From contig JBBDJA010000014.1 of NCBI GenBank assembly GCA_040880105.1, forward strand, positions 50,624-114,623: 64,000 nt of DNA. The letters run 5' to 3'. Source of the stretch: Waddliaceae bacterium (GTDB lineage: Bacteria > Chlamydiota > Chlamydiia > Chlamydiales > SLOH01). Under the pieces are notes generated by a model, which was not told the DNA's origin, searched no databases, and saw only the letters and a program-made list of their open reading frames with translations. Positions 19,707 to 45,344 of the stretch are shown here, one piece after another; position 1 is the stretch's first letter; every line of letters starts with the position of its first letter. The position numbers were made by a program, and so were the translations under genes.

Positions 19707-20509
19707 GGCCGGAGAAGAGACAAGCAATTGTCGATTGGATGGCGCGTTTAGGGATTGATGAAAAGGATTTAGAAGAATCTTTTGTTTTGGGCTCCGGACG
19801 CGGGGGACAGAAACGACAAAAAACGAGCAATTGTGTTGTTCTGCGTCATTTACCGACAAAAACCGTCATCAAATATAGTAAAAGTCGCTCAAGAGAGCTT
19901 AATCGCCTGCTCGCTCGCCGCTTACTCTGTGAAAAATTAGATCCAGTGCCCGCATCTCAAAATAAAATACGAAAGCAGAAAAAAAGACGCCAGCGCCGCG
20001 GGGCTGTAAAATTCCTTTGCGATGAGACGCTTGGGCAGTTAGGGGAGTGGCTGAGAGCTGCAGGTTATGATACAGACATTGCAGCGGCCGGAACAAGTGG
20101 TGATCATCTGATCAAACAAGCAAAAAAAGAAAAACGAGTATTCATTACTTGCGATCATTATTGTATTGAAAAGGACCCAGAGTCGCAATTCTCAATCTAC
20201 CTCTCATCCAATGATCAAAAGAGCGCTGTCCGTGAACTCACTGAAAAAATTTCGATCGACTGGCTATATAAACCTCTTACAAGGTGTTTGAAATGCAACA
20301 CACCTTTCATAAAAGCGCCCGAGGATGCATTAAGCAATGCACTTGAAATCAACTTAGAGCCATGCTCGCATTGCCCGCGTTGCAAGCAACAGGACCCGCA
20401 TGGTACGCATACTGACAATCTGTTACAGATCTTGCGGAGTTTTCGGAGCTTTCGGTTTATTGGTGACCCAGCAAATGAGCGGGAAGAGAAAGAACCAGAC
20501 GGCGCCTAA
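19703..20509 (+). CDS. Fusion protein: GGQ (class-I release factor / ArfB-like peptidyl-tRNA hydrolase) domain + basic linker + Mut7-C (DUF82) PIN-like RNase domain with zinc ribbon
   Basis: N-terminus: DLEESFVLGSGRGGQKRQKTSNCVVLRHLPTKTVIKYSKSRSRELNRLLA. Linker: KIRKQKKRRQRRG. C-terminus: KFLCDETLGQLGEWLRAAGYDT...RVFITCD...RCLKCNTPF...CPRC. The GTG start overlaps the upstream stop (GTGA). Confidence 0.7.
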   Translation: MRPEKRQAIVDWMARLGIDEKDLEESFVLGSGRGGQKRQKTSNCVVLRHLPTKTVIKYSKSRSRELNRLLARRLLCEKLDPVPASQNKIRKQKKRRQRRGAVKFLCDETLGQLGEWLRAAGYDTDIAAAGTSGDHLIKQAKKEKRVFITCDHYCIEKDPESQFSIYLSSNDQKSAVRELTEKISIDWLYKPLTRCLKCNTPFIKAPEDALSNALEINLEPCSHCPRCKQQDPHGTHTDNLLQILRSFRSFRFIGDPANEREEKEPDGA

Positions 20510-23473: not shown

Positions 23474-23556
23474 GCCGGTGTGGCGAAATGGTAGACGCGA
23501 TAGACTCAAAATCTGTTGTTGGCAACGACGTGCTGGTTCGAGTCCGGCCACCGGCA
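23474..23556 (+). tRNA. tRNA-Leu (anticodon CAA), class II with long variable arm
   Basis: Hand-folded cloverleaf. Acceptor GCCGGTG/CACCGGC plus discriminator A. D stem GCG/CGC. Anticodon stem ATAGA/TCTGT with loop CT-CAA-AA. Long variable arm. T stem GCTGG/CCGGC with loop TTCGAGT. No encoded CCA. Confidence 0.9.
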
Positions 23557-23557
23557 C
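23542..23557 (+). repeat. Island direct repeat, left copy (attL-like; 3' end of tRNA-Leu)
   Basis: gtccggccaccggcac covers the T-stem 3' strand, the acceptor 3' strand and the discriminator. Confidence 0.7.
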
Positions 23558-24051
23558 ATATTAACCGAGTAGTTCTTAGGGACTATTCGGTTTTTTTCTA
23601 TATAAACAAGAAATTGATATTAAATTTTTTGAGTTATTGTTTGCAAAATTTTATTTCTTTTATTGATTTATAATCTTTTCAGTCTCCCAGACAAAACAAT
23701 TCCTAGGTATTTCAAAGAAACTGATTTCGTAAGTAGGTTTTTTATTGTCGATGCAGCATGTGAAATTTGGGAGATTTTTAATAATTCAGATTGTTATTTT
23801 GAATTTATGAAGTTATATTTAATTACATTGTATTATAAAGATTTAGTGAAATTTAATTTTATATAATAAATAAAACTAAACTTCAAGTTAAGTAATATTT
23901 TTTTTAAATCTAAATTACATTTAAAGCATTTCATAGGCAATGCATCTGGTGTAAGTTAAAGTTTTTAAACATTATTTATTTCTATATTCATATAAAATTT
24001 AATTTTAAATTTCTGATAATTAGTGTGTTATGTTGATTTGAATTATAAAGT

Positions 24052-24079
24052 GGTGCATAATACTTCAAAAGAATGCACC
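24052..24079. promoter_or_regulatory. Inverted repeat GGTGCAT-N14-ATGCACC, 11 nt upstream of the RHH gene (candidate operator)
   Basis: Exact 7-bp arms read directly from the sequence, immediately 5' of the first gene of the island operon. Confidence 0.3.
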
Positions 24080-24089
24080 TTGGAACGAT

Positions 24090-24272
24090 ATGGATAAATA
24101 CGCACAGAAGACAATTCGCACCTCAGTGATTTTGTCTGAAGAATTACATAAGCAAATTATCGATTTAGCAAAAAAGAATGACGTATCTACTGCATGGATC
24201 ATACGGTATGCCTTGAATCAGTTTCTTGAGACAAGCGGAAGAAAATTAAAGCTTAAGCCGATAAAGGAGTGA
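24090..24272 (+). CDS. Ribbon-helix-helix (CopG/Arc-like) DNA-binding protein
   Basis: 60 aa. [41 protein letters not shown] fits the beta-strand, helix, helix RHH pattern. The stop lies 4 nt before the hsdM start. Confidence 0.65.
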
Positions 24273-24276
24273 AATA

Positions 24277-25854
24277 ATGACAGTCAAAATGAAAAAACAC
24301 AGATCGGGAGCAAATATTGGCTTCGAGCAACAGTTGTGGGCTGCCGCCGATAAAATGCGTGGTCATATGGACCCCTCGGAATACAAGCACGTCGCCCTTG
24401 GTCTAATCTTCCTAAAATACATTTCGGATGCATTCGACGAAAAATACAACCAACTCAAAGAAGAAGCTGGAGCAGACCCCGAAGATCGGGATGAATATTT
24501 AGCTGATAATATCTTTTGGGTTCCAAAGTCTGCACGCTGGAACGTGATTCAAGCGAATGCTCGGTCAACAAAAATTGGAACCATTATTGATGAAGCTATG
24601 ACTGAGCTCGAGAAGGAAAACACCTCTCTTAAAGGAATATTACCTAAAGACTATGCCCGCCCAACGTTAAACAAAGAGAAACTTGGAGATCTTGTCGATC
24701 TGATGAGTACCATAAGCATGAAATCACATGGTCAAAAGGATATTCTCGGACGCGTTTATGAGTATTTTCTTGCCCGCTTCGCAAGCGCTGAAGGGAAGGG
24801 AGGAGGGGAATTTTATACTCCTCAGTCGATTGTTCGTTTACTCGTCGAAATGCTGAAGCCTTATAAGGGAAGAGTATATGATCCTTGCTGCGGTTCAGGC
24901 GGTATGTTTGTCCAGTCTGAAAAATTTGTTGAGGAGCACGGTGGAGGTATTGGCGATATTTCCATTTACGGACAAGAGTCGAATCCGACTACATGGCGTC
25001 TCTGCAAAATGAACCTCGCTATCCGTCAAATTGAAGGAAACATCGGTTTCAAAAATGCGGACACTTTTCATAACGATCTGCACAAGGACCTCAAAGCGGA
25101 TTACATTATTGCTAACCCTCCTTTCAATATCTCTGATTGGGGAGGAGAAAACCTCCGTGAAGATATGCGTTGGAAGCTAGGTGTGCCCCCTGCAGGAAAT
25201 GCTAACTTTGCTTGGGTGCAGCATATTGTCCATCACCTAGCCCCCCGAGGCGTTGCAGGTTTTGTCCTCGCCAATGGCTCGATGAGTTCAAATACAGGCG
25301 GTGAGGGTGAAATTCGCAAAAAACTCATTGAAGCGGATCTTGTCGACTGTATGGTCGCTCTTCCAGGTCAGCTCTTTTACTCAACTCAAATTCCCGTCTG
25401 TCTTTGGTTTCTCGCTAAAGATCGGAAAGGAAGTTCGGAATCAAATTCTAAAATGCGAGATCGAAGAGGAGAAATCCTTTTCATTGATGCTCGCAAACTC
25501 GGATATATGGCGGATCGCACCCACCGTGATCTTGATGCTGATGCTGATATTAAATATATCGTCGATACCTACCATTCATGGCGAGGGGACGAGGTTGATC
25601 ATGAGTCATTCAAAAATGGATATCAGGATATTTCAGGGTTCTGTAAGGCAATAAAAACTGAAGAAGTACAAGAGCATGATTTTGTTCTGACCCCAGGGCG
25701 TTATGTTGGTGCAGAAGAGATTGAAGACGATGGAATCTCCTTTGATGAGAAAATGAAAGAGCTAACTCAAACACTTGCAGAACAGATGGAACGATCAAAT
25801 GAGCTGGATGAGGAAGTCAAAAAGCAATTGGCGAGGTTGGGTTATGAGTTCTGA
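24277..25854 (+). CDS. hsdM: Type I restriction-modification system, methyltransferase subunit
   Basis: HsdM N-terminal domain ([32 protein letters not shown]), SAM motif [10 protein letters not shown], catalytic motif IV NPPFN. Confidence 0.95.
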
Positions 25855-27097
25855 TTGGAAACGTGTAAAACTAGATCAAGCGCTTTGTATAAATCCCAAA
25901 GTACCGATGATTAAAGGTAAAGAATATCCTTTCGTTGAGATGTCATCCGTAGAAGCTAACAATAAAAATGTCAAAGCTAAAGAAATAAGAACTTTTAAAG
26001 GAAGTGGCTCCCGTTTTGTAGAAGGTGATACTATTATGGCACGAATAACTCCCTGCCTTCAAAATGGAAAAATAAGCAGATATAAGGCTTTTAATCAAGA
26101 AAAGCACGCCCATGGTTCAACAGAATTCATCGTTTTACGCCACAGAGAAAACATTACCCATAAAGAGTTCGTGTATTACTTGACCATATCAGATCAGGTT
26201 AAGCCCTATGCTATTTCACAAATGAATGGCAGTTCAGGAAGGCAGAGAGTCCCTGTCGACTCATTTAAACACTTAGAGATAAATTTACCTCCCATTGCTG
26301 AGCAAAAAGCTATTGCAGATATCCTTTCGTCACTAGACGAAAAAATCGAACTCAACCGCCAGATATGTAAAACTCTTGAGGACATTGCAAGTACGTTATT
26401 CAAAAGCTGGTTCATAGATTTTGATCCTGTAAAAGCAAAAGCTGAAGGTAGGGCGCCAGAGGGCATTTCTCCAGAGACTGCAGCACTGTTTCCTGATAGC
26501 TTTGAAGATTCTCCTAAGGGTCGTATTCCAAAAGGATGGAAACTAACAACTTTAAAAGAAGTAGCTTTAAACTTTGATTCAAAAAGAATACCCCTATCAA
26601 ATAGGGAAAGAGAAAAAAGAAGAGGATATTATCCGTATCATGGCGCTACAGGCGTTTTAGATTACCTTGATGATTATATTTTTGATGGAATTTATTTACT
26701 ATTAGGGGAAGACGGTTCCGTGGTCAAAGAAGACGGAACGCCCTTTACTCAATATGTGCGTGGTAAATTTTGGGTAAATAATCACGCCCACGTACTTCAA
26801 GGAATATACCCAATAAGCACAGAGCACCTGTATTTATTTATAAGACAATTAAATATTAGCCCATTCATAACTGGTGCTGTGCAGCCCAAACTAAATCAAA
26901 AAAACATGTATTCAATTCCTTTCGTTAAACCTGATAAAGAGATTTGTCGGCATTTCGCTAAAATTGTCTCACCATTATTTGAAAGAATTTATGCTCTTCG
27001 TCAAGAAATCAAATCTCTAGAAAAAATTAAAAATTCTCTAATCCCAGAACTACTCATTGGAAAAATTCGCATGAATAAAGGTACAGGTATTAAGTAA
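25844..27097 (+). CDS. hsdS: Type I restriction-modification system, specificity subunit (two target-recognition domains)
   Basis: Start moved to the ATG at 25844 ([12 protein letters not shown]), an 11-nt overlap with hsdM. Conserved spacer helices [26 protein letters not shown] and [15 protein letters not shown]. Two TRD-like halves. Confidence 0.9.
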
Positions 27098-27616
27098 ATG
27101 AGTGGAGAGAAAAGGATTCAACCCAAAATCAGGATGGAGCAATTATCAATGGCGTATATACATGCCATAGCCTCCCATTTGGGGTTTGGTGCTGACAAAC
27201 CACTAGTCGATCACGACAGCATTGACCTTACAATAAGTAGTTCCTCTGGTAGAAAAGTTAAACTTGACATACAGTTAAAATCTACTACTACTTTCACTAA
27301 TGAACAGTTGTTAAGTGAAAACATATCTTTTCACTTACCTATTAATAATTACAATGATCTTAGAACTGAAACACTTTGCCCTAGAATCCTCGTTGTCTTT
27401 TGCATGCCCTCTAATGAAAGTGAATGGATTGAGCATAGTACTGAACAATTGATCCTTCGAAAATGTGCATACTGGATCTCATTACAAGGCGAGCAGGATA
27501 CTACTAATAAAGAAACGATAACAATCAGAATTCCAACAAAGAATATTTTCTCCCCTGAAAGTCTGGAAAAACTCATGCTTAGAATTGATAAAGGAGAAGC
27601 CATTAACAATGATTAA
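27098..27616 (+). CDS. DUF4365-like protein (PD-(D/E)xK restriction-endonuclease-like fold), embedded between hsdS and hsdR
   Basis: 172 aa. EQLSMAYIHAIASHLGF...DHDSIDLTISS...VKLDIQLKSTT resembles the DUF4365 consensus (G..yv..ia...G......D.GiD..i......i.vQvKst). The ATG directly abuts the hsdS stop. Confidence 0.6.
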   Translation: MSGEKRIQPKIRMEQLSMAYIHAIASHLGFGADKPLVDHDSIDLTISSSSGRKVKLDIQLKSTTTFTNEQLLSENISFHLPINNYNDLRTETLCPRILVVFCMPSNESEWIEHSTEQLILRKCAYWISLQGEQDTTNKETITIRIPTKNIFSPESLEKLMLRIDKGEAINND

Positions 27617-28742
27617 TGATCTTAAACAAATTTTATTGGATCTATCTGTTCTAGACATCAAGCGCTACTTGCTAGCACAAGGCTGGTCACTAATAGATCA
27701 AATTCAAGATAAAGCCTTGATGCTTCAACATAAACAATATTCTGAAGAGCTAATTCTCCCAATGAGAAAAGAACTTGGTGACTTTTCTATTAGGATGGCG
27801 GAACTCTTTAAAACTTTATCTTTAATTAAAAATAGGCAAGTCCTCTCACTTATAAATGATATCAATATGTCAGGAACAGATATAATAAGAATAAGAATAA
27901 CAAAAGAAGCGACAGATGGAACCTTGCCTTTTAATACTACTAGCGAATTGTTTAATAATTCAAAAGAAATGCTATTATCAGCTGCTTCGGCAGTAAACAA
28001 TCCTCAAAAAATATATAGTTCGAGAAGAACAGACGAAGTTCAAAATTTTATCAACAAACTACGGGTCGGCCAAACAGAGTTTGGTAGTTATATTTTAACA
28101 TTTTTGTCTCCTGTTTCACCAAAGTTGTCAGAGCAGCTATCCCTTTTCCCCGATATGGAAGTCGACGATGACCCTTTTTCAAGACAAACAACAAAAATGC
28201 TTTTAAAAGCACTTATTGCTGCAAAAAAGGCTGCTGCAGAATCAATTACAAGCAATAGTATTGAACCATTTGAAAAGGCCATATCTCAAGGAGTCAGTGC
28301 GAATTTATGTGACTCCATTGCAAATATTGTAAATAAAGCTGGATCAACTGAAATATCTCTTACCTGGGCTAGCAATCGTCCTATTTCTAATTTTAAAAAT
28401 ATAGAAAAAGTATTTTTTGATAATGAAACGGCAGAAATACTTGGTGAAGTTGCTCGCACTTTTAAAAAAAATGAACCAATACAGAATCACTCAATTACGG
28501 GGTGGATTTACAAGCTACGGCATGATCAAAATGATCCTGAAGGGACGATTTACATAAGAACAACAATTGAAGAAAAAAACAGAACTGTAAAAACACAGTT
28601 ATCTGAAAATGACTATCAAAAAGCCTCAAAAGCCCATAGTGACAGAAATCTAATAACAATAACAGGTGAATTAATTATTCGTGATAAAAATGCTGAGTTA
28701 TTATACCCAAGAAACCTAATAATAGAAAATTACGATGACTAG
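27609..28742 (+). CDS. Hypothetical 377-aa protein, no recognisable domain, embedded between hsdS and hsdR
   Basis: Start moved to the ATG at 27609 ([28 protein letters not shown]), an 8-nt overlap with the upstream gene. Its own end overlaps the hsdR start by 8 nt. Clean long ORF with normal composition. Confidence 0.7.
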
Positions 28743-31700
28743 CCAATTATCTGAAGACATAGTAGAGCAAGCCACACTTTCCTGGCTTAAGGGTTTAGGT
28801 TATGAGATTGCCCAGGGACCCAACATCGCCCCCGACAGCCCATCTCAAGAACGAGTAAACTATTCCGATATTATTCTTGAAGACAGACTTCGATCCGCTC
28901 TATTTACTATAAACCCAAAGATTTCTTCCGAGCTCCTAAATGAAGTCACTCGCAAGGTAGTCAGCACACAATCCCTTGATCTTTTTGAAGACAACCGCAT
29001 TTTTCACCAAATGTTAGTTGATGGCATCGATGTTGAGTACCAAAGAGACGACGGCTCTATTGCAGGGGACAAAGTTTATTTGATCGATTTTGAAAACATC
29101 CAAAACAATAGCTTCTTGGCCGTCAATCAATTTACGGTTATTGAAAACAAACGAAACCGTCGCCCTGATATCATCATCTTTATCAACGGCATGCCTCTTG
29201 CTGTTATTGAACTCAAAAATGCAGTTAATGAAAACACTACGCTGAACCAAGCCTATAACCAATTTCAAACCTACAAAAAAGACATTCCCTCCCTTTTTCG
29301 GACAAATGCATTTCTTGTCATCTCTGATGGAATAGAAGCCAAAGCAGGATCTTTGACCGCCGATAAAGAACGGTTTATGCCTTGGAGAACAATTGACGGG
29401 TCAACAATTGCTCCGAAGGGTAAAGCAGAACTGGAAGTATTGCTGAAGGGTATGTTTCGACATGATGTTTTCTTGGACCTGATTCGAAATTTCACTGTTT
29501 TTGAGGTCGATGCAGAAAAAATCGTTAAGAAGGTTGCTGCCTATCATCAATATCATGCTGTCAACAAGGCGGTAAGCTGTACAGTCGATGCTTCTTCTCC
29601 AGAGGGAGACAAAAGAGCAGGCGTTATTTGGCACACTCAGGGGTCAGGAAAGAGTTTGTCAATGGCTTTTTATGCTGGAAAAATTATCCAAGAGACGGGA
29701 ATGGAAAACCCGACCTTGGTTGTTCTGACTGATAGAAATGATCTTGACGAACAACTATTCAATACGTTTTCGAACTGTAAATCACTGTTTCGCCAAACAC
29801 CTGTGCAAGCAAACAACCGAAAGCACCTGATCGACTTACTCTCGGTCGCTTCTGGTGGTGTCATTTTTACAACCATACAGAAGTTTAACTCTGAAAAGGG
29901 AGAAGAGTATCCTTTGTTGTCGGATCGTCGAAATATCGTAGTCATTGCCGATGAAGCGCACCGCAGTCAGTATGACTTTATCGATGGTTTTGCTCGTCAC
30001 ATGAGAGATGGACTTCCCAATGCCTCCTTCATAGGGTTTACAGGAACGCCTATTGAATTTTCGGATAAAGACACGTATGCCGTTTTCGGAGACAATATTC
30101 ACACCTATGATATTCAACAAGCCGTTGACGACGGAGCGACTGTACGTCTCTATTATGAAAGTCGTTTAGCTAAAATTGAGTTAAACGAAACTGAACGCCC
30201 TCATATTGAACAAGAATTCGAAGAAATTACGGAACGTGAAGAAGATAATCTCAAGCAGAAACTCAAGAGTAAATGGGCAAGATTGGAAGCTCTTGTGGGT
30301 GCGGAAAATCGCATCAACCTCCTTGCAGAAGATATTATTGAGCACTTCGAAAGGCGAAGAGAGGCAATGGAAGGTAAAGGAATGATTGTTTGCATGAGCA
30401 GGCGCATTTGCGTTGAGCTTTACAAGGCAATCATTAAATTGCGTCCTGAATGGCATAGTGATGATGACAATGAAGGTCTTCTGAAAGTTGTCATGACGGG
30501 TTCTGCGAGCGACCCACAGGATTTTCAACCCCATATCCGAAACAAGAAGGCTAGAGATCATTTAGCACTACGTGCTAAGAAACCTGAAGATTCCCTTAAA
30601 TTAGTGATTGTCCGTGACATGTGGTTGACAGGGTTTGATGCCCCTTGCATGCATACGATGTATGTGGATAAGCCGATGCGGGGTCACGGATTGATGCAGG
30701 CTATCGCCCGCGTAAATCGAGTATTTAAAGATAAGCCAGGTGGGCTAATTGTTGATTATTTAGGTATTGCTGACTTTTTAAGAAAAGCCCTTGCTAATTA
30801 CACTGAACAAGACAGGGGAGAAATAGGTGTCCCCCAAGAAGAAGCAGTTGCTGTCATGCAAGAGAAGTTTGAAATTGTTCAGCAATTATTTCATAACTTT
30901 GACTATTTATTAGCTATTGACGGGACTCCTACTGAACGTCTCAGTATGATACCGGCAGCAATGGAACATATCTTATCTCAAGAAAATGGACGTGAACGCT
31001 TCATGCAGTCAAGTCTTGATCTTTCAAAAGCTTTTGCCTTGTGCGCTGCAAGTGAAGAAGCTAAATCAATACGGGATCAAGTCGGATTCTTCCAAAATAT
31101 TCGAGCTGCTTTTGCAAAGTCCACCCTTGGTCCAGGAAAAGGATTGGATGAGCTAAATACAGCTCTTCAGCAGGTTGTATCCCGAGCTGTCGCTTCAACC
31201 GAAATGATAGATATTTTCGGCGCTGCGGGTCTGAAAAACCCTGAAATATCAATTCTTTCAGACGAGTTTCTCGTTGAAATCAAGGGAATGGAACGAAAAA
31301 ACCTGGCCCTTGAAATGCTTAAAAAACTTCTCAAGGATGAAATTCGTACACGGTCGAGTAAAAATGTGGTTCAAGCCCGAAATTTTACGGAGATGTTGGA
31401 AAGTACGATCCAAAAGTATCAGGGGCGTTTGATTGAAACGGCTCAAGTGGTTGAAGAGTTGATCGAGCTTGCCAAAGATATTCGTCAAGCTAATGAAAAA
31501 GGGAAAGAACTTGGTCTTAGTGAAGATGAATTTGCCTTCTATGATGCCTTGGGTGACAACAAAAGTGCTAAAGATGTGCTTGGCGACGATCAGTTAAGAG
31601 AAATTGCGAGGGAGCTTGCAGACTCGATTCGCAAAAATACTACAATTGATTGGACGCTCAAGGAAAGTGTTAAGGCGAGGTTGCGTATCCTCGTCAAACG

Positions 31701-31803
31701 CATCTTGCGCAAATATGGCTACCCGCCTGATTTACAAGAGAAGGCTACTCTGACAGTACTTGAGCAAGCAGAATTGCTTTCTAACCAGTGGATGAAGACT
31801 TAA
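28735..31803 (+). CDS. hsdR: Type I restriction-modification system, restriction/translocase subunit
   Basis: 1022 aa. HsdR N-terminal nuclease region ([18 protein letters not shown]), Walker [13 protein letters not shown] box [10 protein letters not shown], helicase C motifs ([14 protein letters not shown]). Confidence 0.95.
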
Positions 31804-31824
31804 ATTGTTAAAACTAGGAAAAAT

Positions 31825-32832
31825 ATGACCTCACAAAATTTTTGGATGATTCGAGCTGGAGCAGGCGGTAGAGTGATCAATGATTTCAAAGAAAAAAATC
31901 TGGTTGCTATTGGATGGTGTGAATCGATTGATCTTTCTAAGATTTCAACAAAACAAAATATTAAGGATTTAATCGCTTCAACTTATCCTGAAAATTCCCA
32001 ACATCAAAATAACATGATCGCTGGTCAAGTGTTTCGCTTTGTGCATGAAATAAAAGTCGGTGACAGAATAGTAACCTACGATTCAACGATGCGATCCTAT
32101 CTTGTCGGAAATGTCAGCACAGGTGCCTATTTTGATCTGTCGCAAATACATTCAATGCCTAACTGTAGACAGGTTGAGTGGAAAAATGAGGTTTCACGCG
32201 ACTTACTGTCTGTGAACGCTAAAAATTCCCTCGGGAGCATCATGACATTATTTAGAATATCTCCTGAAATCTCTTCCGAATTACTTTCTTGTGTTAAAAA
32301 TTCACCATTACAATCCCATCAAGAGCCCAACAATGATGTTATCGAAGATGAGGCTGATCTTTTGAAAGATGTGCAAGCCCGATCTCTTGAATTTATTAAA
32401 GACAGAGTTAGCAGACTTGATTGGGAATCTATGCAAATCCTTGTAGCGGACATTTTAACGGCAATGGGATATAAAACCCGAATATCACCTCCTGGCTCCG
32501 ATAGAGGAAAAGATATCATCGCTTCGCCTGATGGTTTTGGATTTGAACAACCTAGGATTGTTGTTGAAGTTAAGCACCGAAAAGGAAAAATGGGCGCACC
32601 AGAAATCCGTAGCTTTTTAGGAGGACGTCACAAGGATGATAAAGGGCTTTATGTTAGTACTGGCGGCTTTACTAATGAAGCACGTTATGAGGCAGACAGA
32701 GCGACAATACCGCTTACTTTAATGGATCTTGATGATTTAGTCATCGCTCTGGTCGAAAACTATGACAGTATGAGAGTAAATAGTAGGGCTCTTATCCCTT
32801 TGGAAAAAGTTTACTGGCCAATTGATAATTAA
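31825..32832 (+). CDS. Mrr-type (type IV-like) restriction endonuclease with an uncharacterised N-terminal domain
   Basis: The C-terminal Mrr_cat pattern is ILVADILTAMGY...GSDRGKDIIASPD...PRIVVEVKHRKGKMGAPEIRSFLGG...GLYVSTGGFTNEA. The N-terminus is FWMIRAGAGGRVINDFKEKNLVAIGW... Confidence 0.85.
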   Translation: MTSQNFWMIRAGAGGRVINDFKEKNLVAIGWCESIDLSKISTKQNIKDLIASTYPENSQHQNNMIAGQVFRFVHEIKVGDRIVTYDSTMRSYLVGNVSTGAYFDLSQIHSMPNCRQVEWKNEVSRDLLSVNAKNSLGSIMTLFRISPEISSELLSCVKNSPLQSHQEPNNDVIEDEADLLKDVQARSLEFIKDRVSRLDWESMQILVADILTAMGYKTRISPPGSDRGKDIIASPDGFGFEQPRIVVEVKHRKGKMGAPEIRSFLGGRHKDDKGLYVSTGGFTNEARYEADRATIPLTLMDLDDLVIALVENYDSMRVNSRALIPLEKVYWPIDN

Positions 32833-32919
32833 AAAAATATGATAGAATACACTTAAGATGAGATCATTAAAAATTTTTCCTACTCTTCAAGAGACTCAAG
32901 AAAAAAAGACTTAGAGTTA

Positions 32920-33285
32920 CTAGCTATTGTTATCAGCTTTAGGAAAAAGACAATTTGCTACAACTAATCCAAGAGCTACGACTTCCCCAAAAAATGTTAC
33001 CATAGCGGTATGAGGCAACCAAGAATAATTTCCGAAATCTAGAATCCCAAATCCTATCAGAAAAACCATGACCCAAATTGCAAAAGTTGACACCCCAAGT
33101 ACCCCACCAATTATCCAACTCCAGCGGCTTTGCAAACTTATTGTCTGTTCTTTTTCCCGGTTTTCCAGCTCTCTCTTTTTATTTTCGTGGCTTATAAGGT
33201 TTTCAAGGTCTTTAATATCATCTGGGGGAGAACTGCTTTTTAGACGAATATCTTTGATAATTTCGTTATAAATACTTTTATTCAT
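32920..33285 (-). CDS. Small membrane protein (charged coiled N-terminus, 2-3 TM segments), coupled to the ImmA/IrrE protease gene
   Basis: 121 aa. WSWIIGGVLGVSTFAIWVMVFLIGFGIL and AMVTFFGEVVALGLVVANCLF. Its start overlaps the upstream gene end by 8 nt. Confidence 0.6.
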   Translation of the reverse strand: MNKSIYNEIIKDIRLKSSSPPDDIKDLENLISHENKKRELENREKEQTISLQSRWSWIIGGVLGVSTFAIWVMVFLIGFGILDFGNYSWLPHTAMVTFFGEVVALGLVVANCLFPKADNNS

Positions 33286-33766
33286 TGCCCCTCAATAAAA
33301 GACGCCGATAACCAATTACTTCCTTTGAAACTGCAAAAAATCGGGCTAACTCGAAATCTGAATATTTATTTGCATATAGCGCTAACTGTTGAAGGGGTAC
33401 TAATATATTTGCAGCGAAGCAGTTAGCTTCTTTTTCACGGTTGTCTTCTTCTCCCCTGATAGGCTTACGGTAAAAGAGCGTTAATGATGGGTCTTCTCGG
33501 ATTAATTCTTTATGTAAAATCCAATGGCCTAATTCATGTGCGACAGTAAATCGTTTATGGGTGGAAGAGTCATTATTGTTTAAATATATTTTTTTGTTAT
33601 CAATATCGAGTATTCCTGATAGAGCCTGCCTTTCTCCAAAGTCAACATCTCTTACTGTAAGTCCGAATGATTCAGCGATTTCAATAATAGGGACTGGCGG
33701 GGATGTTAAATTCCAGTCCATCCAGATCTTTTTGGCTTCATCTCGAGCCTTTAAGTAATCAGCCAT
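33278..33766 (-). CDS. ImmA/IrrE family (COG2856, DUF955) zinc metallopeptidase
   Basis: 162 aa. HExxH motif in FTVAHELGHWILH, downstream EKEANCFAANILVP, typical of the family. Confidence 0.8.
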   Translation of the reverse strand: MADYLKARDEAKKIWMDWNLTSPPVPIIEIAESFGLTVRDVDFGERQALSGILDIDNKKIYLNNNDSSTHKRFTVAHELGHWILHKELIREDPSLTLFYRKPIRGEEDNREKEANCFAANILVPLQQLALYANKYSDFELARFFAVSKEVIGYRRLLLRGNE

Positions 33767-34157
33767 TTCTTTTGATTGCTCATATTAGATTGTTGGCTAT
33801 CAAGTTTAGTATCTTTCTTAATTGACTAGCAAGTAAACAGATTTTTTTTAACTCGAAGACCTATTTATAAATATTTTTTTTTGATTCTAGGATCTTAAGA
33901 ATTTGAAAAATGAAATGAATGCGACAAAAAAGTTATGAACAATCCGAAAAATCCCCTTTCGAAACCCCCTTGTTCTTGTTCTATTTTGGTGAAGGGGAGT
34001 AGATAAAGAGCAAATATAGCTCGTCTCTCTCGGAAAAATCGCCTTTAAACCCCAACGGCCACACCACTTCATTGATTTTTGGAAATTTTTTCTATGGATA
34101 TAAAGGGTTCAAACTCATAGATCTTGCATATTCCAAGGGCAAAATAGTTCGATAATT

Positions 34158-34173
34158 GTCCGGCCACCGGCAC
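34158..34173 (+). repeat. Island direct repeat, right copy (attR-like)
   Basis: gtccggccaccggcac, identical to 23542-23557. Confidence 0.7.
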
Positions 34174-34175
34174 TT

Positions 34176-34222
34176 CACCGGACAAAACCTCTTTAAAGAG
34201 GTTTTGTCCGGTGTTTCTTTTT
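34176..34222 (+). terminator. Orphan rho-independent terminator (probably the original tRNA-Leu terminator displaced by the island)
   Basis: Perfect 38-nt palindrome caccggacaaaacctcttt/aaagaggttttgtccggtg followed by tttcttttt. It starts 3 nt after the right direct repeat, and there is no plus-strand gene upstream of it. Confidence 0.6.
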
Positions 34223-34374
34223 GTTAAATAAAAAATAATACTATATTCTCAAGATTTATCAATTTAGCTTCATTCTAGCCTTATTTTGATAAAGCTTCAG
34301 GGAGATTTTTTCTCAAAGGGATCAATCGGCCTGTAAGTGAAGTCAGTACATGGAAGTTTGAGGAGTAAACGATT

Positions 34375-36954
34375 ATGTATAGAAAATTCAGCTGTTTTAT
34401 TTGTTTTGCAGTTTTGTGTTTTTCGGCAAGTGCAAATACAGCGGATTTTGTTGTGCAGTCGGGAGATACAGTCAATGTTACGCAGGTGCTTTCCGATGAC
34501 GGAGACCAAGGGTTGATTGAAGATGGCGGTGCGATTGAGACTGTAGGTGCCAATGGCGTTAATATGCAAAATAGCAATCAGGTCGTATTAAATGAGGGTG
34601 TTATTTCAACAGACGGGGATGGCACTAACGGGATATTCAGCACTGGATCTAATTCTGAGATAACAAATAGCGGAAGTATTTCAACGGAAGGGATTAACTC
34701 CACTGGGGTTCGGAGTAGTGGATCTGATAATGAGATAACAAATAGTGGAAGTATTTCTGCGGAAGGGAGTGGAGCTAAAGGAATATGGAGCACTGGATCT
34801 GATGCAAAGATAACAAACAGTGGAAGTGTTTCCATACTGGGGGGTATGATGACAACACGTGGGATTTATGTCCAAAATGTCGACAATGCGGTCATATTAA
34901 ACAGTGGAAGCATCTCAATGATAGGAATGGGAGGGGTTGGCGTTGAGAGTAATGGAGTAGATGTTAAAATAACAAACAGCGGAAGTATTTCGACTCAAGG
35001 GAACTCCGGGCAAGGGATTCTCAATAATGGAGATCGTGCATTCATATTAAGTAGTGGAAGCATTTCAACGGAAGGAGGGGGAGCGCATGGGGTTCGCAGT
35101 ACTGGAGTTGATGTTAAAATCACAAATAGCGGGAGTATTTTGATACAGCTTGGTAACTCCCATGGGATTTTCAATCAAGGAGCTAATACTGAGGTAATAA
35201 ATAGCGGAAGTATCTCGACGTTAGGGTTTAATGCTCGCGGGATCCAAAACACTGCGATTGATGTTAAAGTGAAAAATGGCGGAAGCATTTCTACAGTTGG
35301 AGGGGGAGCGCATGGGATCTTCAATCAAGGAGCCAATGCTGAGTTAATGAATAGCGGAAGCATTTTAACACAAGGGGCAGGCTCTCACGGGATATATAAC
35401 TTAGGAGGAGGAGCTAATGCCGTCATATCAAATAGCGGAACCATTTCGACACAAGCGGGAGCCTCTCGTGGGATTTTCAATGAAGCAGATAATGTAGAAA
35501 TAACAAATAGCGGAAGCATTTTAACGGACGGGAATTCTGCTCGCGGAATTGTGAGCAATGGAGCTGATACTAAGATCATAAATAAAGGGAGTATTTCGAC
35601 CAATGGGTTTGACACTTTCGCTATTGAAAGCACAGGAGAAAATGCACTTATAGCAAATAGTGGAAGCATTTCGACTACAGGGGATTCAGCTAATGTGATT
35701 GATAGCCGAGGAGATGATGCGGTCATCATAAATAGCGGTGAGATTACTGCTACAGGTGATGGGGCTCATGGAATATTTTTATTTGAATCAGATGATTCTC
35801 ATATCATTAATTCAGGGACTATCATTTCCACAAATGGCCATGCGATTAATGTTGTGAATTCATTAAACCCAACTCTTACGCTCAATCAAGGCTCAAATAT
35901 TCAAGGCAGTGTTCGGAGTGAAAGTGCTTTAGATTTAAATGTCGGAAGGGGACTGAACCTACTCCTTACACTTACAGATGATAGTGACGGATTTGATCAG
36001 CTCAACATCTCATCGCCATACATTCTTCTTAATAGCAATTCTATTTTCGTTATGGACGGCACCCTTTTTGCTATCCATGAAGACATGGCTCACGATATGT
36101 CAGACTCCATTCTAGGCGGTGTTCGTCACAACTGCTGCCCGAGTCCGTGCGGATGCGGGCTTTGGACGCAAACAATAGGTTCTTATCGCAAGCGATTAGA
36201 AACAGGTGACTCACTCCCATACTCCGATTGGCAATTGGGACAGATGATCGGCTATGACAGAGTTTCCAATGGTGTTACAGTTGGCGTTTTCGGTGGTTAC
36301 CTGCACGGGGAAGGGAAGACATCCGATCCCATCGACAAGATTTGCCAAAATACCTATTTTGGAGGATTGTCTTTAGCCAAGACAGCCTGCGATGCATGTT
36401 TCGGGTTGACGTTTTCAGTCGGTTATGTCGATTGGGACGAGACACTTTATATTATGGATAACCTAGCTCCCGGCGGCATTGATCTCTATGCAAATGGAAA
36501 CTCTGGCACTTTTATCACTTCCGAGTTTTCCTTGATGAAACAATTCTGCACAACCTCCTTCAGTCCCTGTGTGACATTTTCAGTGCGTCATGCCGGTTTA
36601 TATTTAGGTAGCAGTACGGTAGAGGGAACAGACTTGAGCGTTGTGATTAAAAGAAGGGATATCGATCTTCTCTCCACACGTCTGGATGTGGGAATACCTT
36701 TGAGTGTCGATGGCTTCTGCTTCGAGCCTTTCACCGGAATTTATGGCAGATATAAATTGAAAGGAAGTCATATCGAGCTTGAAGGCAGCGACACGACTTT
36801 TCCTGTTGGTCTTAACAATAAACTGATGGCTTGGGTGATAGGAGTCAGAGGGGACCAGTGCTTTTGCAAAAAGCAAGTCACATTTTCTGTTAGCGGCGAT
36901 TTTGATAATGAAAAAAGTTCTCGTGTTTTGGGTAGTTTAGGAATTTATTTCTAA
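34375..36954 (+). CDS. Autotransporter (type Va) / Pmp-like outer-membrane protein with repetitive beta-helical passenger
   Basis: Signal peptide MYRKFSCFICFAVLCFSASA. 17 tandem 25-aa repeats (I-x-N-S-G-S-I-S-T-x-G-x4-G-I-x3-G-x4). Cys-rich junction (NCCPSPCGCGLW). C-terminal beta-barrel of about 280 aa with alternating-hydrophobic strands, ending ...LGSLGIYF. Confidence 0.85.
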   Translation: MYRKFSCFICFAVLCFSASANTADFVVQSGDTVNVTQVLSDDGDQGLIEDGGAIETVGANGVNMQNSNQVVLNEGVISTDGDGTNGIFSTGSNSEITNSGSISTEGINSTGVRSSGSDNEITNSGSISAEGSGAKGIWSTGSDAKITNSGSVSILGGMMTTRGIYVQNVDNAVILNSGSISMIGMGGVGVESNGVDVKITNSGSISTQGNSGQGILNNGDRAFILSSGSISTEGGGAHGVRSTGVDVKITNSGSILIQLGNSHGIFNQGANTEVINSGSISTLGFNARGIQNTAIDVKVKNGGSISTVGGGAHGIFNQGANAELMNSGSILTQGAGSHGIYNLGGGANAVISNSGTISTQAGASRGIFNEADNVEITNSGSILTDGNSARGIVSNGADTKIINKGSISTNGFDTFAIESTGENALIANSGSISTTGDSANVIDSRGDDAVIINSGEITATGDGAHGIFLFESDDSHIINSGTIISTNGHAINVVNSLNPTLTLNQGSNIQGSVRSESALDLNVGRGLNLLLTLTDDSDGFDQLNISSPYILLNSNSIFVMDGTLFAIHEDMAHDMSDSILGGVRHNCCPSPCGCGLWTQTIGSYRKRLETGDSLPYSDWQLGQMIGYDRVSNGVTVGVFGGYLHGEGKTSDPIDKICQNTYFGGLSLAKTACDACFGLTFSVGYVDWDETLYIMDNLAPGGIDLYANGNSGTFITSEFSLMKQFCTTSFSPCVTFSVRHAGLYLGSSTVEGTDLSVVIKRRDIDLLSTRLDVGIPLSVDGFCFEPFTGIYGRYKLKGSHIELEGSDTTFPVGLNNKLMAWVIGVRGDQCFCKKQVTFSVSGDFDNEKSSRVLGSLGIYF
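34585..35874 (+). repeat. Tandem coding repeat array, 17 units of about 75 nt (25 aa; four units are 24-28 aa)
   Basis: Units read from the translation, for example ITNSGSISTEGINSTGVRSSGSDNE / ITNSGSISAEGSGAKGIWSTGSDAK / ITNSGSISTQGNSGQGILNNGDRAF ... Confidence 0.8.
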
Positions 36955-37056
36955 TCACAGGCGTGCATTCTTAAGTGGCCCCTACCTTTATAGATTATAC
37001 ACACCCACTGGATGAAATGATTTTAAATCCGTAGGTGTGGAAGCGGCGTGTTAAGT

Positions 37057-38778
37057 TTACTTTTCAACTCTTTTAGAAGCAAAAAAGGAACAGAAAAAAT
37101 ATGCCGGATCTACGCCTAAAGCTTTAGAGATCAGTTCTGCTTGCCGAAAAATCAACTCTTTTCTTCTTTGATTTTCCCCTGTCTTAAAATCATTTTGAAT
37201 ATGAATCCGGGAATTTTCCAGCCGAGAAATAGTAGAAGCTGACCTTGGTGTATCACTCAGTAGATGGATTTTAGTCGTATTAGGAGTCTCTTTGGCTTTT
37301 TCTTCTTTAATTTCTTTTTTAACCTGAGAGTCGAGTTTGTCAGCCAACTCTTTTTGGGTCAGACCGCGAAGCTTTGTGCGAAAATCTCTAAGGAGAAGCG
37401 CTTGAAAAGCTTGCTCCATTTTTTGATAAGAGCGTACAACTTCTCGAATGTCTCTTAGCGTGTTATCGTAGTTTTTTTTATCAGCTTTATACCTTTCTTG
37501 TAATTCTTTGCACCACGCTTTATCTTCCTTCATGGCTTCAATACTAATACAGAAAAGAGATTGCAGTGTTTTGTTTAGGATCGTGTTATTTGCTGTCTGA
37601 AGAGTTAGGCATGCTCTAATAACATGTCTATCGGCAGGTTTAATGGCCTTTTTAAAACGCTCGTTAATGATATTTTGAATTTTAGTATCCGTAAATTGAG
37701 ATTCACGGATGATTTCAAATTTACGTTGATAGAAAATTTTTCTTATTACAGGAAGGTCTTTCTGGTTCGCCTTAGAAAAGTTATTGGAAAGAAGATAGTC
37801 GAAAAAGGTATTTCCTTTTTTTAAATCTTCCGGTTTTTCAGCAAGCTCAATCAATTCCTTGACTTTCTCTTTGTAAATCCTAATGGTTTCTCTCTTTTCT
37901 GAAGTAAGATTTTTTGATACCTTAGGGCGTGTTTCCAGTTGGTGTAAGAAGCAGTCAAGAAACTCTCGGGTCGCTTCACATGGAGTAATTTTGCCTTTTG
38001 CAAGCTTATTGATCAGATTAATCGTATCTATTCTTAATGCATTTTTACATTTGGAGTTTCCGTCAATTAGAGTGTCGACTTGGTTTACAAAGGTCGGAAG
38101 TCCTACGGTCGAGTTGTTAAGTGTATCGATGTGAGAACCTTGTAAAAAGGAATAGTATTTTGGTTTTTTTTTCTTGGCTATTGCATCCTTATACTCGTCA
38201 TTTGGACACGCTTTTAGGCTTGGTATGGTACTGGAGTGGGCGGCTTGGTATCCGGTCTCTATTGTCTTACTATACTTTGCGTTAGGATTCTCTTTTATCT
38301 CAATATCTTCTTTTTCTTCCTCACCCTCTTTTACCTCACCATCCTCTGTTTTCATCATTAGTTTTTTTGCTTCAAAAATTTGTCCTTCAGTGTCACCGAT
38401 TTCAAAGTGGAAAGGTGTTCGATAGCAAGCAATCGCTTGTTGAAAAAACAGGGCAACTCGTGTGGCTACATGATGCTCAATTAGGTCTCTATGGGACTTT
38501 GCTAACTTAACCTTATCTGCATGAAGCATATATGTTTTTTTGCTGACAACGAAGGTTTTTGATTTAGATAGTTTAACGCCATCGCGAATAACAAGTAGTG
38601 TACGCAAAGGATCTCTAAAAGAGATGGAGTTCAAGGCTTCTTGAAAAGCGGAATTGAGTTCAAAGAGAACAGCGTTCCATTTATTGGCGCGACTTTTTCC
38701 TCTGTTAGCCGGTAAAGGAAGTAAAGGATCTCTTGTTGAAGAAACGTCGGAATTAAAGGGGGAGAGAGCATTTGTCAT
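37057..38778 (-). CDS. Large hypothetical protein with C-terminal XRE-type helix-turn-helix interrupted by a K/E-rich insert
   Basis: 573 aa. The C-terminus reads LRGLTQKELADKL-(about 35 aa KKEIKEEKAKETPNTT...)-STISRLENSR...ELISKALGVDPAYFF. The N-terminal 450 aa have no recognised motif. Confidence 0.7.
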   Translation of the reverse strand: MTNALSPFNSDVSSTRDPLLPLPANRGKSRANKWNAVLFELNSAFQEALNSISFRDPLRTLLVIRDGVKLSKSKTFVVSKKTYMLHADKVKLAKSHRDLIEHHVATRVALFFQQAIACYRTPFHFEIGDTEGQIFEAKKLMMKTEDGEVKEGEEEKEDIEIKENPNAKYSKTIETGYQAAHSSTIPSLKACPNDEYKDAIAKKKKPKYYSFLQGSHIDTLNNSTVGLPTFVNQVDTLIDGNSKCKNALRIDTINLINKLAKGKITPCEATREFLDCFLHQLETRPKVSKNLTSEKRETIRIYKEKVKELIELAEKPEDLKKGNTFFDYLLSNNFSKANQKDLPVIRKIFYQRKFEIIRESQFTDTKIQNIINERFKKAIKPADRHVIRACLTLQTANNTILNKTLQSLFCISIEAMKEDKAWCKELQERYKADKKNYDNTLRDIREVVRSYQKMEQAFQALLLRDFRTKLRGLTQKELADKLDSQVKKEIKEEKAKETPNTTKIHLLSDTPRSASTISRLENSRIHIQNDFKTGENQRRKELIFRQAELISKALGVDPAYFFCSFFASKRVEK

Positions 38779-39089
38779 ATGGTATTATTTGGTTATTTTT
38801 TAATGATGATAACATAAAAGTTTTTGGTTTTCAATTTAAATATTATATTAACTTTTATGCATATTGAAAAATAAATTTGTTATTTTTTTTAAAGAGGGAT
38901 TGTTGGTTTACTGTTTTCAATAATATGTTTTGTTCAAATAGGGGAAATAATGTTGGTATTGTCCCATGGCAAGTAAGTTTTCAATATTGCAACGGAGGTA
39001 GATCGAGCGATATGAGTCACTGGATTTGATTCAATTTTCATAAATAGTGGGAGCATGTTAACGAATGAGATTTCCAACTGAGGAGATTA

Positions 39090-39421
39090 CACAGTGATAG
39101 TACATAGCGGTCAGGCTGATTGTAAGAGGTGATGGACCTTTTATCCGAGTCAGATAATTCTCTCAGGAGAGTCATTGATGAATTGCATGAATTCACAGAG
39201 TCTGACTCTTAAATCAAGGTGCATATGACCGACATGTTGTCAGACTACATTTCACGTAGAGTGGATCAAAACTGCCATCTAAATCCCTACGGCAATTTTG
39301 GGCTGCGGATACGAAAAATCAACGCTTCTCTCAAGGGGGTAGAGATAAACTTTTCATAGAAACAATCCATTTGAGAATTGGAAGTTTGTTGTTTCTGGGT
39401 AGTTTAGGGATTTTTTCTTAA
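39090..39421 (+). pseudogene. Possible decayed 3' fragment of an autotransporter paralogue
   Basis: 39391-39421 (gtttctgggtagtttagggattttttcttaa) aligns with the last 30 nt of the intact autotransporter at 36925-36954 (gttttgggtagtttaggaatttatttctaa). It encodes ...LGSLGIFS*. The upstream frames are broken by several stops. The left boundary is a guess. Confidence 0.3.
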
Positions 39422-39447
39422 CACTTGAGTATGTCTTGAAATTAACT

Positions 39448-39472
39448 GAAGAGGGATGTCTCCTCTTTTTTT
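39448..39472 (+). terminator. Terminator-like hairpin + T-run behind the putative pseudogene
   Basis: gAAGAGGgatgtctCCTCTTttttt. Confidence 0.4.
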
Positions 39473-39536
39473 GATCATTCAGTCTTTTTAGATCCTAGTT
39501 GTTTATGTTAATTAATTAAAATTAATAAATGTTCGT

Positions 39537-39565
39537 TTGCAAAATATAGAATTTTGTAATATATT
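39537..39565 (+). promoter_or_regulatory. Candidate sigma70-type promoter for queD-folE
   Basis: TTGCAA - 17 nt - TATATT, about 48 nt upstream of the queD GTG start. AT-rich context, so low specificity. Confidence 0.3.
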
Positions 39566-39612
39566 TTTTCTTGAAATATCTGTTTCCAAAATAATATTGT
39601 TGTAGGTGAAGC

Positions 39613-40044: not shown

Positions 40045-40062
40045 GGTTAAGGAAAAATACAA

Positions 40063-43193: not shown

Positions 43194-43213
43194 TATGTTA
43201 TCCTCTCTATCAT

Positions 43214-45262: not shown

Positions 45263-45344
45263 TTATTCCCTTTTTTTCACTCTATTTTGTATGAAAAATT
45301 AGAAAAATGCAAGCATACAAGCTTTAGTCTATGTGACTTGGATT

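Follow-up and report, generated by a model that had tools for sequence, protein, structure and literature searches.

A recombinase-less defence island at tRNA-Leu(CAA) of a Waddliaceae bacterium and its likely relation to a family of serine recombinase islands in environmental chlamydiae

The subject of this work is a 64,000-nt stretch of a Waddliaceae bacterium contig (hereafter the window, which means this whole stretch) and, within it, an island of ~10.6 kb that is located directly behind tRNA-Leu(CAA) and carries nine defence-type genes. The island is delimited by two exact copies of a 16-nt core, GTCCGGCCACCGGCAC, composed of the last 15 nt of the tRNA and one further base. A previous analysis made from the letters alone (the sequence-only reading) had pointed to this direct repeat at 23542-23557 and 34158-34173 and had considered that the 16-mer might be a common dispersed motif. 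The repeat was recovered exactly as described, the window holds no third copy at <=2 mismatches, and 0 copies were expected from shuffled sequences. The flanks are formed by chlamydial housekeeping genes, i.e., cydAB on the left (with cydB abutting the tRNA) and, on the right, a gene for an autotransporter (859 aa) followed by those for PTPS and GTP cyclohydrolase, otsA, truA and ispD. The locus was compared with related stretches of metagenome contigs and metagenome-assembled genomes (MAGs), designated loci L007-L025, M1 (= L010) and M2. On this basis, the segment likely derives, as a cargo-only form without a recombinase, from a family of ~10-13-kb islands that use a large serine recombinase (LSR) and reside at tRNA-Leu(CAA) in environmental chlamydiae. 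The features of the island are collected in Table 1.

Table 1. Features of the tRNA-Leu(CAA) island and its borders (positions in the window; R-M, restriction-modification; HTH, helix-turn-helix; attP and P', attachment site of the circular element and its half-site)
Feature	Position	Strand	Basis or remark
tRNA-Leu(CAA), attachment target	23474..23557	+	ARAGORN, sole tRNA in the window; Rfam tRNA 56.7 bits
Repeat copy 1 (T-loop end, T-stem, acceptor 3' strand + 1 nt)	23542..23557	+	Exact 16-mer
B-type hairpin and T-run directly 3' of the tRNA	23563..23600	+	Terminator-like, 13-pair stem (23563-23592)
AT-rich spacer unique to the locus, in place of the LSR-MerR-HTH module	23601..24011 (411 nt)	.	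Similarity to L008 begins at 24012
Conserved upstream region of the R-M operon	24012..24089	+	77% identity to L008 from 24012 on
Ribbon-helix-helix (RHH) protein, CopG-like, first gene of the operon	24090..24272	+	Pfam RHH_1, E 1.7e-5
HsdM, type I R-M methyltransferase	24277..25854	+	HsdM_N and N6_Mtase, E 1e-111; PADLOC MTase_I, E 8e-232
HsdS, type I specificity subunit	25775..27097	+	Pfam Methylase_S, two stretches; PADLOC Specificity_I
PDC-M02A, DUF4365 nuclease fold, between hsdS and hsdR	27098..27616	+	Pfam DUF4365, E 5e-24; PADLOC E 4e-56, full length
PDC-M02B, partner of PDC-M02A	27585..28742	+	No Pfam match; PADLOC E 8e-106, full length
HsdR, type I restriction subunit	28735..31803	+	HSDR_N, SWI2_SNF2, T1RH-like_C; PADLOC REase_I, 1163 bits
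Mrr_cat restriction-endonuclease-like protein, PDC-S02	31825..32832	+	Pfam Mrr_cat, E 2e-24; PADLOC PDC-S02, E 2e-92
Predicted 121-aa membrane protein, downstream partner of ImmA	32920..33285	-	Hydrophobic C-terminal segments in the translation
ImmA/IrrE-type M78 metallopeptidase (CapP-like)	33278..33766	-	Pfam Peptidase_M78, E 7e-22; PADLOC capP, E 6e-22
Conserved non-coding right-end block of the element	33925..34068	.	82-83% identity to L008 and L019; aligned across six loci
Right arm, relic of an alternative LSR C-terminal tail (attP P half-site)	34069..34157	-	Frame runs on from the repeat as QLSNYFALGICKIYEFEPFISIEKISKNQ, then stop
Repeat copy 2 (attachment core)	34158..34173	+	Exact match to 23542-23557
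A-type hairpin, stub of the last ~20 LSR codons (attP P' side)	34174..34227	-	38-nt palindrome and T-run on the + strand

The gene content listed by the sequence-only reading was confirmed, and the two proteins it had left without a name, as well as its mrr-like gene, were assigned to PDC-M02A/B and PDC-S02, respectively. One operon encodes HsdM, an HsdS with two target-recognition domains, and HsdR, all of them full length according to Pfam and PADLOC; in the latter, every cargo protein matched its profile end to end. As judged from these matches, the type I R-M system is apparently intact, and it is accompanied by three candidate defence modules. The adjacent, full-length PDC-M02A and PDC-M02B correspond to the PADLOC definition of the candidate system PDC-M02, for which no tested function was found in the literature search. 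No family was indicated for the 121-aa membrane protein by Pfam, PADLOC or NCBIfam, and the NCBIfam search added no names for the remaining unnamed island proteins. The operon is preceded by a promoter-like sequence (TTGATT-17-CATAAT, 24033-24061), and RHH homologs with 63-76% identity head the same operon in L007, L008 and L009. The predicted hsdS open reading frame (ORF) opens at a TTG codon placed 80 nt inside hsdM (25775-25854), so that its true start is uncertain; the real one is probably located later, near the hsdM stop codon, as in relatives with a ~10-nt hsdS/hsdM overlap. In this lineage of R-M operons, the cargo found between hsdS and hsdR varies: the slot holds PDC-M02A/B in the window (27098-28742), Abi_C in L009 (9613-9990) and two proteins without assigned identity in L008 (3962-5237), and it is empty in L007 and L021. 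The order hsdM-hsdS-(inserted genes)-hsdR is that of type I R-M loci with embedded defence genes, such as the classical prr locus, from which PDC-M02 differs in not being an anticodon nuclease.

The comparative analysis revealed a family of 10-13-kb islands at tRNA-Leu(CAA) in related chlamydial contigs, each bounded by the 3' end of its host's own tRNA. In L007 and L009, a related RHH-hsdM-hsdS-(x)-hsdR operon directly follows tRNA-Leu(CAA); the tRNA end of the former, GTCCGGTCGTCGGCA, is repeated 12.6 kb away, while that of the latter, GTCCGGTCATCGGCA, is repeated at 11.3 kb and again 2 kb beyond (three copies). The islands of L021 and L023 (11.3 and 10.6 kb) are likewise bounded by exact repeats. 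The tRNA-Leu(CAA) genes adjoining these islands are 82-89% identical to that of the window, and the RHH-hsdM-hsdS-x-hsdR backbone of the window shows 74-84% DNA identity to L007, L008, L009 and L021 across hsdM and hsdR (L021 shares the R-M cargo of the window at 74% DNA identity). The cargo differs between loci. Tandem arrays were found in M1, L009, L013 and L025, and up to four core copies stand behind one tRNA (four in M1/M2); in L012 and L013, the end of the host's own tRNA is repeated as well. Horizontally acquired defence islands had been presumed to be relatively uncommon in chlamydiae; this was not borne out at the present site, as an island, often in a tandem array, occupies tRNA-Leu(CAA) in every recovered related contig that contains this tRNA. 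It should be stressed that the acceptor-stem variants differ between hosts and that the distal copies equal the local tRNA exactly in most loci (single mismatches occur in L013). The distal copies thus track the tRNA variant of each host, which indicates that the insertions postdate host divergence.

The HsdR protein of the island is 100% identical to a protein of a Waddliaceae MAG, 83-91% identical to proteins encoded on other contigs of uncultured chlamydiae and ~76% identical to alphaproteobacterial ones, and the DNA of its right arm (described below) is conserved at a similar level (80-87%), whereas the housekeeping proteins shared by the flanks of the window and of the related contigs (M15-like, HAD, TruA, IspD and metallophosphatase) are only 38-53% identical. 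This contrast argues for horizontal transfer and not for ancestry, and the horizontal acquisition of a defence island at the tRNA's 3' end, proposed in the sequence-only reading, can be regarded as shown by sequence comparison. One could suppose instead that the R-M genes have always stood beside the tRNA and that the 16-mer is a chance or dispersed motif, the more so as related type I R-M operons adjoin tRNA-Leu(CAA) in several chlamydial contigs. This was refuted, and we give it practically no probability: the 16-mer is confined to its two sites, its distal copy matches the tRNA variant of its own host, which is not maintained by vertical descent, the island proteins are far more alike than the host proteins, the cargo changes from locus to locus, and intact recombinases and probably a circular form exist.

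The sequence-only reading had also stated that the island lacks a recombinase and that the usual position of an integrase next to the tRNA is taken by an AT-rich stretch. Both observations held. No recombinase domain was detected by Pfam in the ORFs of the island or in the flanking ORFs between 6.6 and 49.9 kb, and a tblastn search of the whole window with a related LSR yielded nothing besides a ~48-codon relic across the right repeat. Exactly at the position of the AT-rich stretch, L007, L021 and L023 carry a recombinase module. In L007, the minus strand adjoining the tRNA forms a frame of 532 codons with Resolvase, Recombinase and Zn_ribbon_recom domains, which identify its product as an LSR, and MerR-like and small HTH genes follow it; intact LSRs of 532 aa and 531 aa are encoded at the same position in L021 and L023, respectively. 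The missing enzyme is therefore a serine recombinase, and the expectation of the usual integrase type did not hold, since it is not of the tyrosine type. In the LSR frame of L007, located on a 2.05-Mb contig, there is a single in-frame stop at codon 268 (4430-4440 region; ...KFGDE-stop-EYYVPG...), which reflects either a recent pseudogene or an assembly error. A 379-aa ORF near the right end of L009 was considered as a hidden integrase and rejected, as it gave only a weak metallo-beta-lactamase match.

Where the relatives hold a ~3.3-kb module (LSR, MerR-like, HTH), the window has the AT-rich spacer. The GC content of 23601-24089 is 0.215 (0.41 for the window), the ORFs of this stretch have no Pfam match, and 23601-24011 shows no similarity to related loci and, in tblastn, none to LSR, MerR or HTH proteins. 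An LSR remnant of ~165 codons is left in L009 and a longer one in L014, so loss of the module is recurrent. The comparison with the relatives shows that the ~3.3-kb LSR-MerR-HTH module was lost from the island of the window. A search for recombinase remnants had been advised on both sides of the island, and its outcome was divided: none were found in 23558-24089, while the relic of an LSR tail was found in the right arm (34069-34157), continuing to 34227.

The arm is a stretch of ~75 nt left of each distal core that is homologous between loci, and its understanding depends on the LSR frame. In chromosomal copies, this frame runs through a hairpin-forming stretch (...EKTGQxxFEESLSGEL), passes the core as PxTG and ends within the tRNA as LEPAPCCQE or LEPALYC before the stop codon. 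The T-loop-encoded motif G[LFIV][EK]P terminates 95 of 120 LSR homologs, which points to a broad family of tRNA-targeting LSRs. In every locus, the arm carries the same LSR frame on past the core, as QLSNHFVEGMRKIYELEPFIK...KRAV and a stop. The arm of the window, present there in a single copy and slightly degenerate, shows 80-87% DNA identity to at least 15 arm copies elsewhere. A 23-nt arm pattern applied to metagenomes retrieved 11 further stretches; no arm match was found in viral contigs.

Among seven distinct arms, the differences at codon positions 1/2/3 number 101/107/260, i.e., 260 of 468 fall on the third position, and the differing codon pairs comprise 153 synonymous and 174 non-synonymous ones. 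Moreover, the tail motif LSNxF...YELxPFI recurs in the database LSRs P0272, P0312 and P0350, which are 25-55% identical to the relic of the window over the aligned stretch. P0272 is a full-length LSR of 565 aa with an arm-type tail, encoded on L022 (Ga0210389_10008927, 7749 nt), where the LSR gene starts the contig and a MerR gene runs to its end; AbiEii, TetR and esterase genes are also present. Because the ends of this contig share a 79-nt redundancy with 1 mismatch, it is probably circular; it may represent the excised state of a related element whose core is a different one. Taken together, the codon-position bias, the share of synonymous differences, the conservation in distant LSRs and the P0272 contig indicate, at the level of sequence, that the arm-encoded tail is a real coding segment under purifying selection. 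As the LSR frame crosses the core, insertion swaps this conserved tail of ~40 aa for a short one encoded by the tRNA. LSRs ending in ...GQL were examined as attP forms cut at contig ends and were not counted for the tail, since their frame enters a diverged arm-like sequence and meets a stop codon there. One of these is the truncated distal LSR (384 aa) of L025, which lies beside RloB/AAA_21; L025 (3068-12257) contains two LSR genes in one array adjoining M15-like and HAD genes.

It was further noticed that GGTTCGA abuts GTCCGG in all tRNAs, while 5 nt (TAATT) stand between them in nearly all arm copies. In serine integrases, the outer motif lies ~5 bp farther out in attP than in attB half-sites. 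In L008 (9630-9700), a differing, almost perfectly palindromic core occurs, GTCCGCTGAA-GGGCAT-TTCAGCGGAC; the centre of its dyad falls on GC, equal to positions 13-14 of the core of the window, and this sequence feature suggests that the crossover point is located there.

To the right of the second core, the sequence-only reading had noted a perfect 38-nt palindrome with a T-run and no gene to terminate, and had interpreted it as the native tRNA terminator displaced by the insertion. The palindrome (34176-34213; hereafter the A hairpin, with 17 pairs, a 4-nt loop, and a T-run reaching 34222) is real and stable (dG -30.1 kcal/mol, z = -8), and the part of the claim that was not supported is the displaced native terminator. 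In tblastn, residues 501-548 of the attP-form LSR align without a break onto 34227->34084 (54% identity, E 9e-11), and the minus strand of the window across the right repeat is a single frame, ...TKRNTGQNLFKEVLSGEV-PVAG-QLSNYFALGICKIYEFEPFISIEKISKNQ, up to the stop codon. The palindrome itself has 80-87% DNA identity to the LSR 3' ends of L009, L014, L021 and L023, which identifies it as element DNA, i.e., the last ~20 codons of an LSR gene. The same continuous frame through stub, core and arm was found in L008, L012 and L013. By these sequence matches, A stub, core and arm are shown to form an attP-like relic. No Rfam family besides the tRNA was found in the window; a sub-threshold match of the palindrome to the psbA 3'UTR was dismissed as chance.

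These data bear directly on the scenario of a single integration which pushed the native terminator 10.6 kb away, with the integrase decaying in place to the AT-rich stretch. Its attraction is that the tRNA end is repeated exactly, that the position of the recombinase agrees with the relatives, and that a homologous hairpin stands directly after tRNA-Leu(CAA) in L007, L009, L021 and L023. The predicted order in relatives, tRNA and then hairpin, was thus literally found, yet an integrated element occupies each of these sites, and its LSR gene is what contains the hairpin. Furthermore, the hairpin of the window keeps the LSR frame and is joined to the frame of the arm, and DNA identity of 80-87% across hosts with 38-53% housekeeping protein identity is unexpected for native intergenic DNA. 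The tRNA of the window already has a strong terminator-like hairpin of its own, and 23558-24089 lacks the recombinase remnant that decay in place would leave. We therefore consider a displaced native terminator improbable.

The preferred reading, derivation from the LSR island family, can be set out as follows. Islands of this family would insert into the 3' end of tRNA-Leu(CAA), between T-loop and acceptor. An intact member consists of the tRNA and core, an opposite-strand LSR gene, MerR-like and small HTH genes, then a divergent RHH/type I R-M operon or other defence cargo, the conserved right arm and a second core. The LSR frame would end inside the tRNA in the chromosomal state and run into the arm, with its ~40-aa tail, on the excised circle. 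Its last ~20 codons before the core form the hairpin and T-run on the tRNA strand and probably serve to end the tRNA transcript after insertion. Most simply, the A stub of the window would be what is left of a second, older element, namely its left end, the rest of this member of a tandem array having been deleted; we infer this order of events from the arrangement that is left.

The hairpin that directly follows the tRNA (the B hairpin), which had not been mentioned in the sequence-only reading, complicates this picture. Its dG is -18.1 (z = -6), and A and B are the top two terminator-like sites within 23.3-34.5 kb. The unit of tRNA and B hairpin is 85% identical to that of M1 over 124 nt, and B-type hairpins follow the last repeat in L007, L009, L013, L019, L023 and M1. 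The B hairpin contains stop codons in the LSR frame in the window, while the same frame is open in M1. That it is the stub of a third LSR type seems doubtful in view of these stops, and no LSR ending in this way turned up. With regard to its predicted function, B is a better candidate than A for the native terminator of the tRNA. Two further tRNA-Leu copies with B-type hairpins were observed. In L019, a 3-kb contig, a hairpin much like that of the window follows tRNA-Leu(GAG) (2915-3036, minus strand), and ~2.2 kb from it lies an arm whose core, of the CAA type, is not that of this tRNA. In L017 (Ga0105048_10000879, 3728-3850), a degenerate tRNA-Leu copy with a deleted D-arm, which is not called by ARAGORN, has its own B-type hairpin inside the third island of a four-copy array.

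Several observations weigh against the preferred reading. No empty site was found, so no junction is demonstrably native; the scan of genome contigs with CydB returned nothing but Rhabdochlamydia MAGs at ~46% identity, which showed no synteny and lacked tRNA-Leu(CAA), the exact 43-nt tRNA pattern had no match in metagenomes, and the 859-aa autotransporter was rejected as a synteny marker, as its best homologs are <=54% identical and stand in unrelated contexts. Neither a third repeat nor a further arm was detected in the 30 kb to the right, and the supposed second element is represented only by a ~50-bp stub. In L008, the closest relative, arm, core and stub are arranged in the same way, and the sequence ceases to resemble the window at the same position beyond the T-run, so that the stub may be the right end of the island itself and not of a neighbour. 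The B hairpin, with stops in the LSR frame and the look of an ordinary terminator, makes the left site resemble an uninterrupted attB and not attL. Finally, the composition check proposed earlier gave a weaker signal than anticipated, as the island is only mildly atypical (GC 0.385 vs 0.41; a tetranucleotide distance reached by 2% of host segments).

Some of these points would be accommodated if the island lay between an attB-like site (tRNA-core-B) and an attP-like site (arm-core-A stub), i.e., if it had been inserted with reversed polarity or without the use of att sites. In the first case, a circle with an attR-type site (arm-core-B) would have entered the attL of a resident LSR element by an excision-type reaction; in the second, non-att recombination would have brought an excised element back in just past the tRNA terminator, and its LSR would have been lost afterwards. 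This argument draws on the site-pair rules of LSRs from other systems, and in such an arrangement a helper LSR alone (attB x attP) could excise the island. B hairpins after tRNA-Leu(GAG) in L019 and after the last repeats are what one would expect of the native right flank, M1 shares the conserved tRNA-B unit, a single reading frame spans stub, core and arm in all four loci named above, and the order predicted by this reading is seen complete in L013, namely tRNA-core-(non-LSR hairpin) ... arm-core-A stub ... arm-core-B-like. Against this, B hairpins are 73-85% conserved across hosts with ~45% protein identity and occur several times per array (M1), so they may travel with the elements, and a circle with an arm-core-B junction was not seen. 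On balance, insertion by either of these routes seems to us possible, if rather doubtful, and derivation from the LSR island family, most simply through a tandem array, is preferred.

As for mobility, both exact cores and the arm are kept in the window without a recombinase, which corresponds to what defines cis-mobilizable or pseudo-SCC-type elements (see below). The island would be unable to move alone and could move only if a related LSR acted in trans; it is probably a domesticated, immobile relic. The earlier conclusion that it was immobilised or mobilised in trans was thus the right one.

A more speculative proposal, in which we place rather little confidence, is that the exchange of tails acts as a functional switch. 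Only on the circle, with the conserved ~40-aa tail supplied by the arm, would the LSR be full length and integration-competent; upon insertion, 7-9 tRNA-encoded residues would take the place of this tail. Recombinase-less islands such as the present one, located between an attB-like and an attP-like site, would be hitch-hikers of reversed polarity. If true, a helper LSR would excise such islands by the integration reaction and insert them by the excision reaction, and this would lead to a build-up of defence cargo at tRNA-Leu(CAA) in intracellular chlamydiae.

The neighbourhood of the island also shows signs of rearrangement. In eight related contigs, the gene immediately upstream of tRNA-Leu(CAA) encodes an M15-like peptidase, and HAD, truA, ispD and metallophosphatase genes come next in the outward direction, while the counterparts of these genes in the window are located at 42420-46286 in the opposite orientation. 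As this block is relocated and cydB stands at the tRNA instead, ~19 kb (23474-42444) must have been inverted or rearranged, one end of this segment being located just upstream of the tRNA. To the right of the autotransporter gene, a low-GC stretch (0.36-0.38; 37057-41500) could be more accessory DNA; its 573-aa minus-strand protein gave only a marginal HTH_3 match and no NCBIfam family. On the left, the ORF 19703-20509 encodes an unusual fusion of RF-1 (ArfB-like peptidyl-tRNA hydrolase) and Mut7-C RNase domains.

The literature search found no description of this chlamydial island family; its closest architectural parallels are the genomic islands of Dehalococcoides at ssrA (ssrA-GIs). These are tandem islands with insertion in the T-loop region and direct repeats of the ssrA 3' end (McMurdie et al. 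2011, PMC3146451). They have a reverse-strand mobility module at attL, in which the frame of the ~540-aa serine recombinase DsiB always overlaps attL and stops within the target or the neighbouring island, and a conserved motif just upstream of each distal repeat; many members lack the integration module and were read as cis-mobilizable, and the authors proposed that the recombinase is complete perhaps only on the circle (PMC3146451). The chlamydial islands, compared here by architecture, share the repeats of the target 3' end, the tandem arrangement, the LSR frame over the core and the module-less members. They differ in phylum (Chlamydiota), in the target (tRNA-Leu(CAA), not ssrA), in the module (LSR, MerR-like and HTH here, DsiB-DsiA-RecF-ParB-Mom in ssrA-GIs) and in the cargo (anti-phage defence here, reductive dehalogenases in ssrA-GIs). 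The conservation of the arm tail and its purifying selection were shown here for the chlamydial islands.

Staphylococcal cassette chromosome (SCC) elements use the large serine recombinases CcrAB/CcrC and insert at the 3' end of rlmH. The likeness to them is one of layout, namely LSR-driven insertion at the 3' end of a conserved gene, whereas the SCC target is protein-coding, two recombinase subunits take part, and cargo and hosts are different. In SCC and pseudo-SCC, LSR cassettes also occur in tandems delimited by direct repeats, and those without ccr need a recombinase in trans (PMC3146451). The concept of cis-mobilizable elements (CIMEs) and of accretion-mobilization of streptococcal integrative and conjugative elements was cited in the same work (PMC3146451). 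Like CIMEs, the island of the window keeps its att sites, lacks recombinase and transfer genes, is a tandem neighbour or a derivative of an autonomous element and would need a helper; unlike it, CIMEs depend on tyrosine recombinases with regenerated core sites, and the window has no helper element. Tycheposons of Prochlorococcus are cargo elements at tRNA genes, a minority of which use LSRs, and with each new insertion earlier ones are displaced outward, so that genomic islands are built from the partial tRNAs and degraded remnants left behind (Hackl et al., bioRxiv 10.1101/2020.12.28.424599). They differ from the chlamydial islands in mostly having tyrosine recombinases, often with replication genes, in residing in marine cyanobacteria and in carrying nutrient-acquisition cargo.

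As far as the window is concerned, the outcome is a modest one, since its island is a rather ordinary relic, though one that brings a recurrent insertion hotspot to light. Its wider meaning is that environmental chlamydiae appear to exchange defence genes via a dedicated serine-recombinase island family at one tRNA hotspot. The selection on the arm-encoded tail, its conservation in distant LSRs and the probably circular contig lend sequence-level support to the idea, raised for Dehalococcoides, of a recombinase that is complete only on the excised element. Given the deep divergence of housekeeping genes between the hosts (~45-50% protein identity), this hotspot may be a useful marker for gene flow in intracellular bacteria.

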